A program made the position numbers and the translations under genes. 42,281 nucleotides of DNA from a virus. The stretch lies in IMG/VR virus record IMGVR_UViG_3300030122_000023, one strand, 5' to 3'. Of the stretch, positions 12,221 to 15,703 are shown one piece after another. Under the pieces are notes generated by a model. The model ran no database searches, was not told the DNA's origin, and saw only the letters and a list, made by a program, of their open reading frames with translations. Every line of letters starts with the position of its first letter. Within the stretch, counting starts at the first letter, position 1.

Positions 12221-12430
12221 CTATTTCCCACCGAAATACCTTCTAAGCACTTCTTTTTCTTCTTCCACAATGCAATCCTTTCTTAATCTGTTGCACTGGT
12301 CGTATATATACTTTCCGTACTCTTCTAATTTGGCTATCATTGCATTTTTATTTTCCAATGTAGGATTTTTAATGTATTCTTTTTTAAGCTCTATATAGTC
12401 CTCATACTGCTTTATAACATCCATTTTCAA
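12221..12430 (-). CDS. Small helical protein, unknown function
   Basis: 69-aa ORF, last gene of the cargo operon. Confidence 0.5.
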   Translation of the reverse strand: MKMDVIKQYEDYIELKKEYIKNPTLENKNAMIAKLEEYGKYIYDQCNRLRKDCIVEEEKEVLRRYFGGK

Positions 12431-12743
12431 TTACCCCATTCAAAATATCATCTGCTATGCCAACGACTTCTTTTCCATAAAGAGACAGAAAATCAGCTAC
12501 GATTTCCTCTACATCTATTGGAATTTGGCAGTCATATGAAAATGAAGCGCAGTGTACCAACTCATGAGATAGAACTCGCTCTAACAGGCTTCCGCTTAAT
12601 GCATTTGACAAATAAACCGTTCGTTTGCTCCAATCTGTAACACCAAGTGTAATTGTTCCGTCTGAACGCATCAAACATTCACTATTAGGATTTACATATA
12701 AAATATTCCATTCAACATCATTCATTTTAAACACTGCGCTCAC
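12402..12743 (-). CDS. Small HExxH zinc-metallopeptidase-like protein (SprT/ImmA-like)
   Basis: 113 aa with motif LSHELVHC preceded by the G.TD....(I/V)YL pattern. Confidence 0.55.
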   Translation of the reverse strand: MSAVFKMNDVEWNILYVNPNSECLMRSDGTITLGVTDWSKRTVYLSNALSGSLLERVLSHELVHCASFSYDCQIPIDVEEIVADFLSLYGKEVVGIADDILNGVIENGCYKAV

Positions 12744-12746
12744 CTC

Positions 12747-13397
12747 TTAGATTTTCTGTAACATCATCTGTAATTCATTTCTCCACATCTGCTTTTCTTC
12801 CGGTGCTGCATCTGATGTCATTTCAGTAATATCCATCTGCATATCTCGCAAGTAATCTTTTCTTGCTTTTGCACGCTCTTTTTTATCTTCCTCTGAATTT
12901 CCATGATGGTTTTCTCTGGTCTCCATATAAGTACGTCTGGAAATACCGGCTTTTCCCTCTCTGGAATCCCTCGGATATGATTTGTCTCCCATCATTCCGG
13001 TATCTGTATACATCCTTTTCAGGTCTTTCTTATCCATGTCTCTCATGTGCTCTGTATCTTCGTAATAATCCGGGTACATGTGATAATATGGTGGCTCATC
13101 ATATCCTCTTCGTTTTCCTCTGCCCTTAGGTGCGAATCTTCCATCAGCATAACGATACTGATCATAGTATCTTCGGTCATCCCCATACTCTAAAAGCTTC
13201 TCCATGATATCTGCTTCGTCCGCTTCGTTCATTGCCTTAGTAATTGTGGCATAATACTCTGCTTCTGACAGATCCTTTATCATGTCGATCACTTCTCCCA
13301 TTTCTTCTGTATTGACATTCTCAATCCCTTTTTCAATCTCACACAAGGATTTTTCAGCAAGGCATTCAAGCATTTTATGAATTCTTTCAATATGCAT
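12747..13397 (-). CDS. Highly charged Tyr/Asp/Arg/Met-rich protein, unknown function
   Basis: 216 aa, with low-complexity stretches such as DDRRYYDQYRYADGRFAPKGRGKRRGYDEPPYYHMYPDYYEDTEH. Confidence 0.55.
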   Translation of the reverse strand: MHIERIHKMLECLAEKSLCEIEKGIENVNTEEMGEVIDMIKDLSEAEYYATITKAMNEADEADIMEKLLEYGDDRRYYDQYRYADGRFAPKGRGKRRGYDEPPYYHMYPDYYEDTEHMRDMDKKDLKRMYTDTGMMGDKSYPRDSREGKAGISRRTYMETRENHHGNSEEDKKERAKARKDYLRDMQMDITEMTSDAAPEEKQMWRNELQMMLQKI

Positions 13398-13400
13398 ATA

Positions 13401-13823
13401 CTAAGCCTCCCTTACTACGATTAAATTACTGTTCTGTACCTCGATAGTCTGTCCAGATGTATTCTGAACCGCTATTGTGCTGCAACATCCACAAGGAACA
13501 TCTACGTAAACCTGTGCAGATACATTGAACATGTTTTCTACTGCCGCAGGTGTCACGATCATTCTTGTAGACTGTAAAGGCTCTCCGTCAATTGCGATTG
13601 CAAGAGAAATAGCTTCCACCGTTCCACCGGTTGGGATCTGGATATTTCCGCTATAAGATACAAGAAATCTGGCTTTGCACTGGTTTGTGATCCCTCTTAA
13701 TTTAACTACTCCGCTTCCCTGTCTGTGAACGATACATTTTGTTCCGCAAACCGGTGTCTCAGTAAATGCGACATCTTCTCCTTGCAGGACAGTCTGTAAA
13801 GCATTGGCTGTAAATTCTGACAT
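13401..13823 (-). CDS. Small all-beta protein with a C1q/BclA-C-terminal-domain-like sequence pattern and Cys motifs
   Basis: 140 aa with alternating beta-strand pattern (VAFTE..., FLVSYSGNIQIP, ISLAIAIDGEPL, IEVQNSNLIVV), plus CGTKC and PCGCC. Confidence 0.5.
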   Translation of the reverse strand: MSEFTANALQTVLQGEDVAFTETPVCGTKCIVHRQGSGVVKLRGITNQCKARFLVSYSGNIQIPTGGTVEAISLAIAIDGEPLQSTRMIVTPAAVENMFNVSAQVYVDVPCGCCSTIAVQNTSGQTIEVQNSNLIVVREA

Positions 13824-13840
13824 AATATTTTCCTCTCTTT

Positions 13841-13875
13841 CAAAAATATAAGGGCAAACATTAAAGTCTGCCCTT
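13841..13875 (-). terminator. Internal rho-independent terminator or attenuator within the cargo block
   Basis: Minus strand AAGGGCA-12 nt-UGCCCUU followed by AUAUUUUUG. Confidence 0.55.
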
Positions 13876-13942
13876 TGTGTTTAAGTAATACTGCTATGCA
13901 GACATAATCTTGTCGATTAAGATACTTTAATTATTCAGTTGT

Positions 13943-14689
13943 CTAACATCCGCATCCATTGTTACAACCGCATCCATACGGAATGTATGTGTTCGGGTTT
14001 GGCACCTGGTATGCTGGGATTGGTGATGGATTAACAGCGCTGATAATATGATTTGTCTGTGCTGTCATAGCGGTAGTCAGAAGTGCGTTCTGTCTATCCT
14101 GTGATGCTGCAAGTCTCAGATCATTATTTTCTGCCTGCAACGTTGCAATCTTATCCTGACATAAGTAGTCAAGTATCGCTCTTGTTCCGGCATTCTGGCT
14201 GTCGATAATATCTCTCGTGTTGTTGTTCATGGTGTTCTGTAATGCGCAAGTGTTCTGCGCCATGTTGAAGTTTACACCCTGGATAGCTTCACGAGTTTCG
14301 CAGCAACAATTTGCAAGCTGAGACTGAATAGCATTTGCATTCTGCATTCCTGCTACTGTGTCCGCATTAATTGCCTGCTGAATGGCGTTAAATCCAGTCA
14401 GCATTCCGTTGTTTACTGCATAAAAGCCATCACAAAGACCATTTGTAATGCCATCAAGTTTACTTATGACTGCTGAATTGTCAAATCCTCTCTGGATATC
14501 AGCCTGTGTAGCCGCAGTTGCGGTATAACCGCCACCACCATTACCACCGAATCCATAACCGCCCCATCCACCGAATAAGGCAAAAAGGATAATGAGAACC
14601 CACCAACCACCATCGCCCCATGCACCATCATTACGGTTTCCACAAGTAACGGCGGCAATGTCCGCTAAACTTGGAGATGAATTAAACAT
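13943..14689 (-). CDS. Gly/Trp-rich membrane segment plus N/Q/A-rich, Cys-studded protein ending GCGCNNGCGC
   Basis: 248 aa. N-terminal region GAWGDGGWWVLIILFALFGGWGGYGFGGNGGGGY, internal NCCCETREAIQG, C-terminus YGCGCNNGCGC. Confidence 0.6.
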   Translation of the reverse strand: MFNSSPSLADIAAVTCGNRNDGAWGDGGWWVLIILFALFGGWGGYGFGGNGGGGYTATAATQADIQRGFDNSAVISKLDGITNGLCDGFYAVNNGMLTGFNAIQQAINADTVAGMQNANAIQSQLANCCCETREAIQGVNFNMAQNTCALQNTMNNNTRDIIDSQNAGTRAILDYLCQDKIATLQAENNDLRLAASQDRQNALLTTAMTAQTNHIISAVNPSPIPAYQVPNPNTYIPYGCGCNNGCGC

Positions 14690-14740
14690 ATGTGTTCCTC
14701 CTAATAAAATTTATTTATACATAATCTTGCAAGAATAGTA

Positions 14741-14956
14741 TCAATGTTTAAACTGGCTCATGATTTCTTCCGGGTTTAGACCTTTTTCTTTGCACAAATT
14801 TCTGGCAAGCTGTTCCAGCCCTTTACTGTCTCCACGGTTCATCATGTCGAATGTATTTTTCATGATCGGATTATTTGAAAATTGAGAGTTGCTCATCATT
14901 TGACTTAATATCATCTTAGGGTTTCCACCGCACTGGATCATCTGCATTAAATTCAT
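14741..14956 (-). CDS. Small Met/Asn/Gln-rich protein, unknown function
   Basis: 71-aa ORF, ATGA-coupled to the upstream gene. Confidence 0.5.
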   Translation of the reverse strand: MNLMQMIQCGGNPKMILSQMMSNSQFSNNPIMKNTFDMMNRGDSKGLEQLARNLCKEKGLNPEEIMSQFKH

Positions 14957-15360
14957 TCAGAATCGCTCTCTTTCTTTGCTCTGGTAGTCCTCTGGGACTG
15001 AGTTATTTTAGCTTCTATCTGGTCTAATCGCTCCATTATCGGGGCAATCAATGTTGCCGTGTCTTCTTTCGGTAATTCGTTTTGCTTTCCGTCTAGCTGC
15101 GGTTTATATGTAACTGTCTGAATAAGCCCATTAGCACCCCACGATTTTATATATATTTCTGCTCCATCTGCTTTCGGGAAAATGGCAAATGGTGCATTCA
15201 TGGGAACGTCATTCGCTGTGACTTCCTCAACAGAATTAACCATTCTTCCACAAAGTCCAGCTTGTTGCGGCATGATCTGTTGTGGGAATTGCTGTTGAAT
15301 CTGCTGTGGCTGTTGATATTGAGGATAAGAATACTGATTATATCTCTGAAACTCGTACAT
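14953..15360 (-). CDS. Protein with a Gln/Pro/Tyr-rich N-terminus, unknown function
   Basis: 135 aa. N-terminus YNQYSYPQYQQPQQIQQQFPQQIMPQQ. RBS AGAGAGG upstream. First gene after the terminator at 15437..15467. Confidence 0.55.
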   Translation of the reverse strand: MYEFQRYNQYSYPQYQQPQQIQQQFPQQIMPQQAGLCGRMVNSVEEVTANDVPMNAPFAIFPKADGAEIYIKSWGANGLIQTVTYKPQLDGKQNELPKEDTATLIAPIMERLDQIEAKITQSQRTTRAKKESDSE

Positions 15361-15436
15361 AATAAACCTCTCTTTCTATTTTCATTTTATTATTAACAGC
15401 ACAATTGAACCACCCCAGCAAAACCCCATTAAAAGG

Positions 15437-15467
15437 ACACAAAAAAGACACCCTTAACGGATGCCTT
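15437..15467 (-). terminator. Rho-independent terminator after the GerE-like gene
   Basis: Minus strand AAGGCAUCC-GUUAA-GGGUGUCUU (9 bp including 2 G-U pairs) followed by UUUUGUGUCCUUUU. Confidence 0.6.
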
Positions 15468-15481
15468 TAATGAGGAGAAAG

Positions 15482-15703
15482 TTATGTAAAATGTTGTCCA
15501 GTTACCCTAAGAATTTTATGTTGCATTTTTACGTTGATACGTCCTGCTGTCTTCGTTGAAACATGCATAATTTCTGCACATTCTTCCAAAGACTTTTCTT
15601 TCTTCCGTAAATCAAAGAGCGTTTCTTCTGTCGGTGTGAAATCACACAATTCTTTTATATGCTCTTTTTCTTCTTTGGTAAAGCACGTAACAATGTTTTT
15701 CAT
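15482..15703 (-). CDS. Stand-alone LuxR/GerE-type HTH regulator (73 aa)
   Basis: FTPTEETLFDLRKKEKSLEECAEIMHVSTKTAGRINVKMQHKI matches the LT.RE..V..L...G.S..EIA..L.(I/V)S..TV pattern. Monocistronic, with its own terminator. Confidence 0.6.
   Translation of the reverse strand: MKNIVTCFTKEEKEHIKELCDFTPTEETLFDLRKKEKSLEECAEIMHVSTKTAGRINVKMQHKILRVTGQHFT

Follow-up and report, generated by a model that had tools for sequence, protein, structure and literature searches.

Positions 12,221 to 15,703 of the IMG/VR virus record IMGVR_UViG_3300030122_000023 (42,281 nucleotides, all of which is called the window here) hold a block of eight open reading frames (ORFs), all on the minus strand (g1 to g8; their products are written G1, G2 and so on), and this block is an autonomous accessory cassette that moves horizontally among tailed gut phages. 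The class that suits it best is that of accessory or moron-like phage cassettes; it has a C1q/BclA-type knob, is widespread and had not been characterised before. An earlier reading of this DNA that was made without database searches (the sequence-only reading) had placed the eight ORFs between a minor-capsid gene on one side and the tRNA-Ile, scaffold and capsid genes on the other, and this is confirmed. It had also proposed that the block remodels the spore surface of the host, and we conclude that the cassette is probably not a spore-coat module. The explanation that we favour, to which we give a probability of roughly 0.3, is that the cassette encodes a two-piece rod-and-knob fibre, joined by cysteines and made late in infection. 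What is new here is the anatomy of the cassette, i.e., genes in a fixed order, one core protein with a confidently predicted fold and a conserved RNA element, together with a host range that speaks against the most attractive hypothesis, that of the spore. No account of the cassette, its synteny, the G5 fold in this setting or the RNA element came up in searches of the literature on BclA and prophages, C1q-like decoration proteins and the outer capsid protein of crAss phages.

The distribution of the cassette was followed in two sets of loci. Relatives of G5 were collected in a scan of one genome per species, which found 211, and 80 loci were kept; gene order was compared in a synteny set of 83 loci by tblastn and all-against-all clustering. 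Almost all of the 80 loci are from gut Clostridia (Lachnospiraceae, Oscillospiraceae, Acutalibacteraceae, Ruminococcus, Subdoligranulum and Butyricicoccus), and the others include a few Bacilli, metagenome-assembled genomes of Anaeroplasmatales and some contigs of ~40 kb labelled Bacteroidota, Collinsella or Methanobrevibacter, which are probably mis-binned. Among phage records G5 is present in 15 of 50,697. The gene for G4 is directly upstream of that for G5 in 78 of the 83 loci, and in most of the remainder the locus is truncated where the contig ends or its ORFs are in fragments. Written out more fully, the conserved order runs G1 or c33, c5, G2, G3 or c6, G4, G5, G6, and finally G7 or c10, where the names in c stand for protein families of the related loci; c33, like G1, is a small HTH protein that resembles sigma region 4.

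The cassette always has the orientation of the late (structural or lysis) genes that adjoin it, and it is found in several genomic contexts. In the window and in 8-10 related loci it has the minor capsid gene on one side and the scaffold gene on the other. In most prophages it follows the endolysin and holin (PF05105) genes and precedes an opposite-strand integrase and repressor, and in contigs of ~70-175 kb it follows tail- or holin-like genes and precedes an opposite-strand NrdD/NrdG/dUTPase module. Individual viruses add to this list. For example, Butyrivibrio virus Ceridwen, which was isolated on Butyrivibrio fibrisolvens DSM 3071, has c5-G2-c6-G4-G5-G6-c10 between its lysis genes and an XRE/antirepressor pair; Dulem virus 39 has G2 to G7 beside replication and integrase genes, and Dulem virus 33 has the cassette beside an integrase. 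In T1-like phages a cassette with a G4 homologue comes after the lateral tail fibre genes, and in the crAss-like cr116_1 the cassette is just upstream of scaffold-like and capsid genes. In all 80 genomic loci G5 stands in the same cassette order (with G4 alongside, save in a few truncated loci) and phage genes surround it where the flank suffices; no host-chromosomal copy or paralogue family of G5 was seen among them.

The variable position, the patchy distribution and the terminators of its own mark the block as autonomous cargo, or a moron, as the sequence-only reading had held; the same cassette recurs in at least three genomic contexts. It resembles other morons and lysogenic-conversion cassettes in these properties and in its usual site between lysis genes and integrase. 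Unlike them, it is larger (seven or eight conserved genes), it always runs in the late-gene direction and it also occurs in large, virulent-phage-like contigs with nucleotide-metabolism genes. The cassette is very abundant in gut viromes. One G4 sequence is found on at least 1000 contigs, some of them named from Anaerobutyricum hallii and Roseburia inulinivorans, and each cassette protein forms thousands of clusters at 90% identity, with all of the genes annotated as hypothetical.

The core protein with the confident fold is G5. Its AlphaFold2 model, built from a 74-sequence alignment, is all-beta (pLDDT 95.8, pTM 0.87), and a Foldseek search of the PDB gave 140 matches at E<=1e-3. The best of these is the F-BclA tip domain of the Bacillus thuringiensis F-ENA (9h38, E 7.6e-9, TM-score 0.74), and it is followed by the C-terminal domain (CTD) of BclA (1wck), the TNF ligand EDA-A1, BxpB (8d02), ExsFA (7r1m) and C1q, with the phage fibre or spike knobs 8ke9 and 9eul at lower ranks. 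The predicted fold is a ten-strand TNF/C1q-like jelly roll of the BclA-CTD type, and this likeness is at the level of the fold only. A C1q/BclA-CTD-like fold for the 140-residue protein is thus one of the points on which the sequence-only reading was right, and the exosporium proteins are indeed its best solved matches. Among the models of viral proteins in BFVD, the closest are stand-alone proteins of ~135-142 residues (one of them named 'BclA protein') that belong to uncultured gut phages of sipho-, myo- and podo-type; next come fibres of phages and giant viruses that have C1q or collagen tips.

The comparison with solved relatives can be taken further. With the BclA-CTD and the F-BclA tip, which are tip domains of the Bacillus exosporium nap and F-ENA, G5 shares its predicted fold and its length of ~135-140 residues (E 7.6e-9 to 3e-7, TM-score 0.68-0.76). 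It differs from them in having only 10-15% identity, no BclA_C match, no collagen-like stalk in the same chain and no leader; moreover, it is encoded by phages, including phages of non-spore-formers, and is paired with a separate helical Cys-rich protein. BxpB and ExsFA are, like G5, stand-alone TNF-like proteins of similar size (TM-score 0.72-0.75), and they resemble G5 in their setting as well, since these exosporium anchoring proteins act with a separately encoded fibre protein and Cys-rich partners. G5 has no sequence similarity to them and no ExsY/CotY-type partner, and its hosts extend beyond spore formers. Viral fibre knobs (the CBD of the cyanophage A-1(L) short tail fibre, 8ke9; the phi812 central spike knob, 9eul; the C1q/collagen proteins of BFVD) have the same fold, which serves there as a distal binding knob. 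There a long fibre protein has the knob as its C-terminal domain, whereas G5 is the product of a separate gene.

Searches by sequence gave a different picture. Single-sequence and profile searches found no relative of G5 in Pfam, NCBIfam or the PDB, and in Pfam there was no BclA_C match at E<=1. Ena structures are absent from the top 50 Foldseek matches. The sequence-only reading had named BclA-CTD, Ena/DUF3992 and YjcZ as targets for comparison, and no cassette protein has a sequence match to BclA_C, Ena/DUF3992 or YjcZ (no PF13157 match, and no NCBIfam match for g4). No collagen-like GXY run was detected in g5 or its neighbours, except for the Gly-rich anchor of g4, and G5 has no exosporium-targeting leader. 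G5 does belong to phrog_20016 (function unknown; E 1.6e-64), and its family comprises 4755 clusters at 90% identity and 660 at 50%. No natural fusion of G5 to a stalk was found; the longer family members examined are mis-called starts or chimeras with c5 or G2. Two such metagenomic proteins, P0248 and P0365, join the N-terminal half of c5 or G2 to a C-terminal part of G5, and they look like internal cassette deletions or assembly artefacts. The conserved PxGCC motif of the family has the form PCGCC in the window protein (residues 111-115).

The other core protein, G4, is enriched in N, A, G and C. It begins with a hydrophobic N-terminus (a Gly/Trp-rich segment at residues 31-49, Kyte-Doolittle 1.57), which leads into a helical N/Q-rich body of ~150 residues with a CCC motif, a Pro-rich PxPAY region and a Cys/Gly tail that ends GCGCNNGCGC. 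In the family alignment W30 of the hydrophobic segment, C128-C129-C130 and P225 are invariant, and a C-terminal C-G-C is nearly so. The model made from a shallow alignment (pLDDT 34) is unusable; helices are predicted at residues 63-110, 118-151 and 156-219, and the outline of that model is one hydrophobic helix with three long ones. G4 is the only cassette product with a membrane-like segment, and no signal-peptide-like stretch occurs in the others, and hence assembly takes place in the cytoplasm or at the inner membrane face, as it does for virion or coat proteins. Its N-terminus (residues 1-17 in the window protein, 14639-14689, minus strand) is of two types in the family, L-S-x-x-D-(I/V)-A-A-(V/L)-(T/S)-G-(G/N) and TPFTMPVxP. 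The first of these resembles a double-glycine leader.

The reach of G4 extends beyond the phages of Firmicutes, and phrog_16490/9288 is a pan-phage family. G4 matches phrog_16490 at E 1.3e-64, and a 24-sequence G4 profile has a full-length match to a 305-residue protein of the Bacteroides uniformis phage C3_41T2LP (E 4.5e-41), annotated "outer capsid protein/viral fiber". The same profile matches a Clostridium perfringens phage protein (E 1.4e-38) and the 233-residue bas06_0034 of the E. coli phage KarlJaspers (Bas06) (E 1.6e-6, profile positions 42-224; phrog_9288), whose relatives in Shigella and Salmonella T1-like phages match it as well. Many crAss-like genomes encode further relatives under the label "spike protein/glycoprotein", and so do two viruses whose assigned hosts are Methanomassiliicoccales; full-length homologues are known from the Bacteroides, C. 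perfringens, E. coli T1-like and crAss-like phages and from the methanogen-assigned viruses. The N-terminal region of these distant relatives is still rich in Gly, and in all but the E. coli protein it is strongly hydrophobic; they also retain the CCC, SQxxQ and PxPAY motifs and the C-terminal Cys tail. Enlarging the search mostly added sequences 97-99% identical to the window protein, and so, little diversity was gained. G4 has no NCBIfam match at E<=1. The possibility that it is a class I viral fusion protein was considered and rejected: the profile matches influenza HA2 chains at E 0.3-8 only, and hhalign gives 1.6% probability against H3 HA2. These weak alignments pair the Gly/Trp segment with the fusion peptide, and this resemblance probably explains the "spike" annotations in crAss-like phages. 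In existing collections phrog_16490, phrog_9288 (both G4) and phrog_20016 (G5) are sequence clusters of 'unknown function', of which the window proteins are clear members (E ~1e-64), and the crAss-like homologues of G4 carry the labels 'spike protein/glycoprotein' or 'outer capsid protein/viral fiber'.

In loci that lack G5, the gene behind G4 encodes another beta-rich, Cys-containing protein of 125-180 residues. Inspected by eye, the G4 neighbours in Bacteroides and crAss-like phages include such a protein, bearing a CGC or CC motif, another that combines an N-terminal beta-domain with a coiled coil, a small Y/D/R-rich protein and an HExxH ("PolyVal") peptidase. Their likeness to the cassette proteins is one of composition, motifs and gene order only; hhalign detected no homology of G5, G2 or G6 to the G4 neighbours in Bacteroides, crAss-like, E. 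coli or C. perfringens phages. Two loci deserve mention. In the crAss-like cr109_1 (L088; 3946-4551 and 6068-7433) a gene annotated 'RNA polymerase sigma factor/ubiquitin-like' is upstream of the G4 homologue and has a G6-like Y/D/R/E-rich tail. The downstream genes of this locus have in-frame stops under table 11, consistent with stop-codon recoding, which occurs in some crAss-like phages. In Caudoviricetes sp. vir215 (L089), whose assigned, putative hosts are the methanogenic Methanomassiliicoccales, a phrog_16490 homologue (4878-5759) lies between a tail gene with a diversity-generating retroelement reverse transcriptase and an integrase.

Between the genes for G4 and G5 there is a structured RNA with three hairpins. 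Its order is P1, an invariant ATG, P2, a spacer, P3 (the internal terminator) with a T-run, and then the ribosome-binding site of G5. In a 34-sequence alignment 19 of the 21 predicted pairs show compensatory double changes, and 95.9% of the paired cells can pair, compared to 76% in column shuffles (none of 500 as high) and 41-54% when the partners are slid. The frequent G-U pairs place the RNA on the sense strand. A covariance model finds one copy per locus in 62 further loci (e.g., L036, 7885-8004) and in the window, always downstream of G4 and upstream of G5, with no copy elsewhere in 1.08 Mb. The Bacteroides, crAss-like, E. coli and C. perfringens loci have no copy by this model, and in a subclade that includes Ceridwen and the large-contig group the G4-G5 spacer is only 11-22 nucleotides long. 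Rfam 15, searched over 11800-16000 at E<=1, has the tRNA and no family for the element. Its 5' motif AACTGAATA was tried as a repeated promoter or operator and rejected, as it is confined to the G4-G5 spacer across the loci. We infer that the element most likely sets the G4:G5 ratio, through partial termination or stabilisation of a 3' end; an antitermination switch that depends on a protein or on the RNA polymerase is a possible alternative.

The sequence-only reading had called terminators behind g1, g4 and g8, and hairpins were found at all three places. The hairpin behind g4 is conserved with covariation in 63 loci. A hairpin with a T-run also follows the gene for G1, or for its homologue or analogue c33 (which stands upstream of the cassette in ~20 loci), in most of the related loci, e.g., L008, L014, L016, L018, L019, L043, L049 and L080, and hence G1/c33 with its own hairpin forms a separate mini-unit ahead of the cassette. 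A TATAAT-like box is often just 3' of this T-run.

The remaining cassette proteins are a mixed group. G1 had been taken for a GerE/LuxR-type regulator, and like GerE of B. subtilis it is a protein of ~74 residues that consists of a helix-turn-helix (HTH) only. That assignment fails: there is no match to PF00196 (GerE/LuxR) at E<=1 and no GerE chain in the PDB at E<=10. Its best matches are profiles of sigma-70 region 4, namely phrog_1190 'RNA polymerase sigma factor' (E 5.7e-5, profile positions 98-156 of 167) and, more weakly and both below the curated cut-offs, TIGR02937 (E 0.005) and PF08281 (E 0.18). G2 (Q 15%, z=7; P 7%) matches phrog_21718 at E 5e-6, has no Pfam or PDB relative, and its family is found by clustering in 56 of the 83 loci. 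The slot between G2 and G4 is occupied in most loci by G3 or the analogous family c6. In an alignment of 31 homologues of G6, which has no Pfam match and is present in ~44 loci by clustering, the terminal helices are conserved and the core of YSRD-type repeats is variable. G7 matches PF10026 (DUF2268) at E 9.5e-4 with 19.2 bits, below the cut-off of 23.6, phrog_1233 (function unknown) at E 8e-11 and phrog_13742 'peptidase' at E 0.012; it is behind G6 in 17-18 loci. The last gene, g8, is poorly conserved, with a tblastn match in one of the 83 loci. Many related loci also have c5, a 127-residue protein that is absent from the window. Its invariant D17-C18, H98 and D109 might conceivably form a papain-like triad, judging from the alignment; its identification as a C39 peptidase was rejected because neither Pfam nor the PDB supports it, and no other peptidase family was detectable.

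The peculiarities of the products listed in the sequence-only reading stand for the most part, i.e., the Q/P-richness of G2, the Gly/Trp-rich segment and cysteines of G4, the PCGCC of G5 and the HExxH of G7. The exception is the Tyr/Asp/Arg-richness of G6, which is regional (about residues 74-125); over the whole protein M and R alone pass z>3. The Tyr/Arg/Asp-rich low-complexity core of G6 does recall the coat proteins CotC, CotU and CotG, and this likeness is compositional only. Searches of Pfam, NCBIfam and PADLOC with the eight proteins gave no family-level assignment beyond the weak HTH and HExxH matches; among the PADLOC defence profiles there was no match for g1 to g7, and g8 reached E 0.008 only. 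Against the PDB by sequence or profile, nothing significant was found for G5, G4, G2, c5 or g1.

Table 1. Features of the cassette and of its flanks in the window (aa, amino acids; nt, nucleotides).
Feature	Position	Strand	Description
Minor capsid protein gene, SPP1 gp7-type	15833-17113		PF06152, E 1e-66
g1 (G1), 73 aa	15482-15703	minus	Stand-alone HTH, putatively of sigma-70 region 4 type; putative dedicated regulator
Terminator-like hairpin and T-run directly 3' of g1	15434-15468	minus	Stem 15468-15444, 10 pairs
g2 (G2), 135 aa	14953-15360	minus	Q/P/Y-rich N-terminus, small conserved beta-rich middle, coiled-coil-like and acidic C-terminal tail
g3 (G3), 71 aa	14741-14956	minus	Met/Gln/Asn-rich; M 14% (z=5.2)
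g4 (G4), 248 aa, core gene	13943-14689	minus	Gly/Trp-rich hydrophobic N-terminal anchor, N/Q-rich body, Cys/Gly tail
Three-hairpin RNA element, ~120 nt	13821-13941	minus	Covariance model 69.6 bits, E 2.8e-11
Internal terminator-like hairpin after g4	13850-13875	minus	P3 of the G4-G5 RNA element
g5 (G5), 140 aa, core gene	13401-13823	minus	Predicted stand-alone TNF/C1q/BclA-CTD-type jelly roll, conserved PxGCC
g6 (G6), 216 aa	12747-13397	minus	N- and C-terminal helices around a low-complexity Y/R/D/S/G-rich middle
g7 (G7), 113 aa	12402-12743	minus	Small HExxH metallopeptidase-like protein, motif SHELVHC
g8, 69 aa	12221-12430	minus	Helical, last gene of the block; phrog_28802, E 9e-6
Closing terminator-like hairpin after g8, strong	12037-12070	minus	Stem 12070-12047, 9 pairs, 6 G-C, T-run
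tRNA-Ile, anticodon TAT	11964-12037	minus	ARAGORN; Rfam RF00005, 50.4 bits
Scaffold gene	11256-11885		PF06810; the capsid gene follows

How might these pieces work together? In phages and on spores the TNF/C1q-type fold is usually the distal knob of a fibre. By analogy with its fold relatives, G5 would form trimers. In the rod-and-knob explanation, G4 would be a helical rod, which G5 caps or to which it is tethered through the conserved cysteines, so that the architecture would resemble a BclA whose parts come from two genes and whose stalk is a helical rod instead of collagen. Both core proteins do have conserved cysteines, the CCC and tail of G4 and the PxGCC of G5, and in one locus (L082; G4 at 7181-7978, G5 at ~8001-8417) they are lost together, G5 being cysteine-free and G4 lacking both the CCC and the Cys tail. 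With a conserved G4 and a changing beta-rich follower, the rod would be the constant part and the head the variable one. Anchoring, either in the infected cell's membrane or in the particle, may be the task of the hydrophobic end of G4; G2 (Q/P/Y-rich), G3 (M/Q-rich), G6 (Y/R/D-rich) and the metallopeptidase-like G7 may be assembly, matrix or processing factors; G1 would be a dedicated regulator, and the RNA with its terminator would tune the expression ratio of G4 to G5. The product would be made late in the lytic cycle, in keeping with the late genes beside the cassette, and act outside the cell after lysis, either in binding and adhesion or in protection of the progeny. If this is true, the cassette represents a new type of phage surface or adhesion structure that is relevant to the persistence of phages in the gut. 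Homologues are carried by cultivable phages (the E. coli phage KarlJaspers/Bas06 with bas06_0034-0031, the Butyrivibrio phage Ceridwen and C. perfringens phages, among them CPD1 and XP41-N3), and so, the function is open to genetics.

Several points weigh against this explanation. The contact between G4 and G5 is purely inferred, since the G4 model is unusable, and in locus L068 G4 keeps its cysteines though G5 has no CC motif, a partial counter-example to the correlated loss. For a virion fibre, a hydrophobic Gly/Trp segment conserved as strongly as this one is unusual, and it points to a membrane protein. Phages whose virions are built on unrelated plans (sipho-, myo- and podo-type) carry the cassette, terminators within a head operon are what one would expect of a moron under separate regulation, and no virion proteome was found for any carrier. 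A broader version of the proposal, which we regard as rather improbable, is that G4 and a variable beta-rich partner (G5 in the phages of Firmicutes) are a near-universal, so far unrecognised two-component late complex of tailed viruses that resembles a spike. It would consist of a membrane-inserting rod with a Cys triad and a jelly-roll head, with expression tuned by RNA, and its task would be a step at the membrane or in adhesion that does not depend on the host, during release, entry or persistence in the gut. The viruses concerned, from gut habitats, would be those of Bacillota, Bacteroidota and Proteobacteria, and possibly also those of methanogenic archaea.

The main rival to the rod-and-knob explanation, somewhat less probable than it, is that the cassette has a late or lysogenic function at the membrane. 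G4 would be an integral membrane protein acting in superinfection exclusion at the step of DNA entry, in the timing of lysis or in release, and G5 and the others would be its cytoplasmic partners. Across Gram-positive, Gram-negative and methanogen-assigned viruses the one conserved feature relates to something that every host has, a lipid bilayer, and the hydrophobic N-terminal segment of G4 is retained among these viruses. The explanation also suits the commonest site of the cassette, where the holin and lysin genes immediately precede it and the integrase follows, a classical moron site in phages of Gram-positive bacteria, as well as its own terminators. However, the PADLOC search matched none of the known families for defence or exclusion, the cassette already has canonical holin, endolysin and spanin-like genes as neighbours, and seven or eight genes with low-complexity, coat-like products far exceed what known superinfection exclusion (Sie) or lysis-control systems need. 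The window, moreover, has a Sie-like gene (39112-39705, plus strand) beside its serine integrase (39754-41094, plus strand), and hence this phage already owns a conventional lysogenic-conversion locus elsewhere.

We think it rather unlikely that the block is strictly a set of capsid decorations or head fibres, in which G5 trimers and G4 bind an SPP1-like capsid lattice; the sequence-only reading had offered such a set as its alternative. Trimeric decoration proteins are common, and the position of the block next to head genes in the window, in its 8-10 relatives and in cr116_1 would suit such a role. Most loci, however, have the cassette outside the head module, strong terminators would stop the expression of the scaffold and capsid genes, and the carriers are unrelated and differ in capsid and tail types. 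Movement among unrelated virion types argues against a decoration that is specific for one lattice. The head fibres of crAss001, gp21 and gp29, are different and much smaller proteins (PMC10172136).

A bacteriocin-like factor, for which G4 would be a leader-bearing, Gly/Trp-rich, Cys-containing and membrane-active protein, processed by a peptidase of the cassette and freed at lysis, has little to commend it: the double-glycine-like N-terminus, the invariant Cys, His and Asp of c5 in many loci and the HExxH of G7 would fit, but the TPFTMPVxP type has no leader motif, c5 has no detectable relationship to C39 or other peptidases and is absent from the window, and a mature protein of ~230 residues comes with no immunity gene or transporter. 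Least probable of all, and in our view very improbable, is a module that remodels the spore surface or coat in the sporulating mother cell under a GerE-like regulator; the exosporium proteins among the best matches of G5 (F-BclA, BclA, BxpB and ExsFA), the absence of signal peptides, as in coat proteins, the Cys-rich and Y/R/D-rich partners and the many clostridial carriers all made it attractive, but the cassette products have no GerE, BclA_C, Ena or YjcZ membership by sequence and neither a collagen-like repeat nor an exosporium leader, the 80 genomic loci show cassette order and phage surroundings with no host-chromosomal copy, and the survey finds the cassette or G4 in phages of non-spore-formers. 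Butyrivibrio fibrisolvens is described as non-sporulating, and the complete cassette of Ceridwen, together with G4 and analogous neighbours in phages of Bacteroides, E. coli, Shigella and Salmonella and in crAss-like and methanogen-assigned viruses, means that the link to spores fails on distribution; a block common in phages of non-spore-formers was one of the outcomes that the sequence-only reading had itself named as refuting it.

The window itself is approximately the whole genome of a temperate siphovirus, which also encodes endolysin, terminase, portal and tape-measure genes in addition to the integrase and Sie-like genes. A phage contig from human faeces, MT835516, is 97.3% identical to it over the 4.2 kb compared (11800-16000). 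Scans of both strands gave 6 terminator sites compared to 3.4 +/- 2.2 in shuffles, which is not significant alone, and a scan for sigma-70-type promoters gave 10 sites compared to 12.7 +/- 3.5, i.e., no excess. The tRNA-Ile(TAT) immediately follows the closing terminator of the block and precedes the scaffold gene; it belongs to the flank and is not a conserved part of the cassette in other loci. A single ORF of 565 residues (19158-20855, minus strand) matches small-terminase PHROGs over residues 2-123 and large-terminase PHROGs over ~109-548, and it may be a fused small and large terminase (TerS-TerL) or an over-extended ORF call. Finally, the early region has a large DNA methyltransferase gene and a gene resembling that of 3'-phosphoadenosine 5'-phosphosulfate (PAPS) reductase (25044-26756 and 26803-28017, minus strand).

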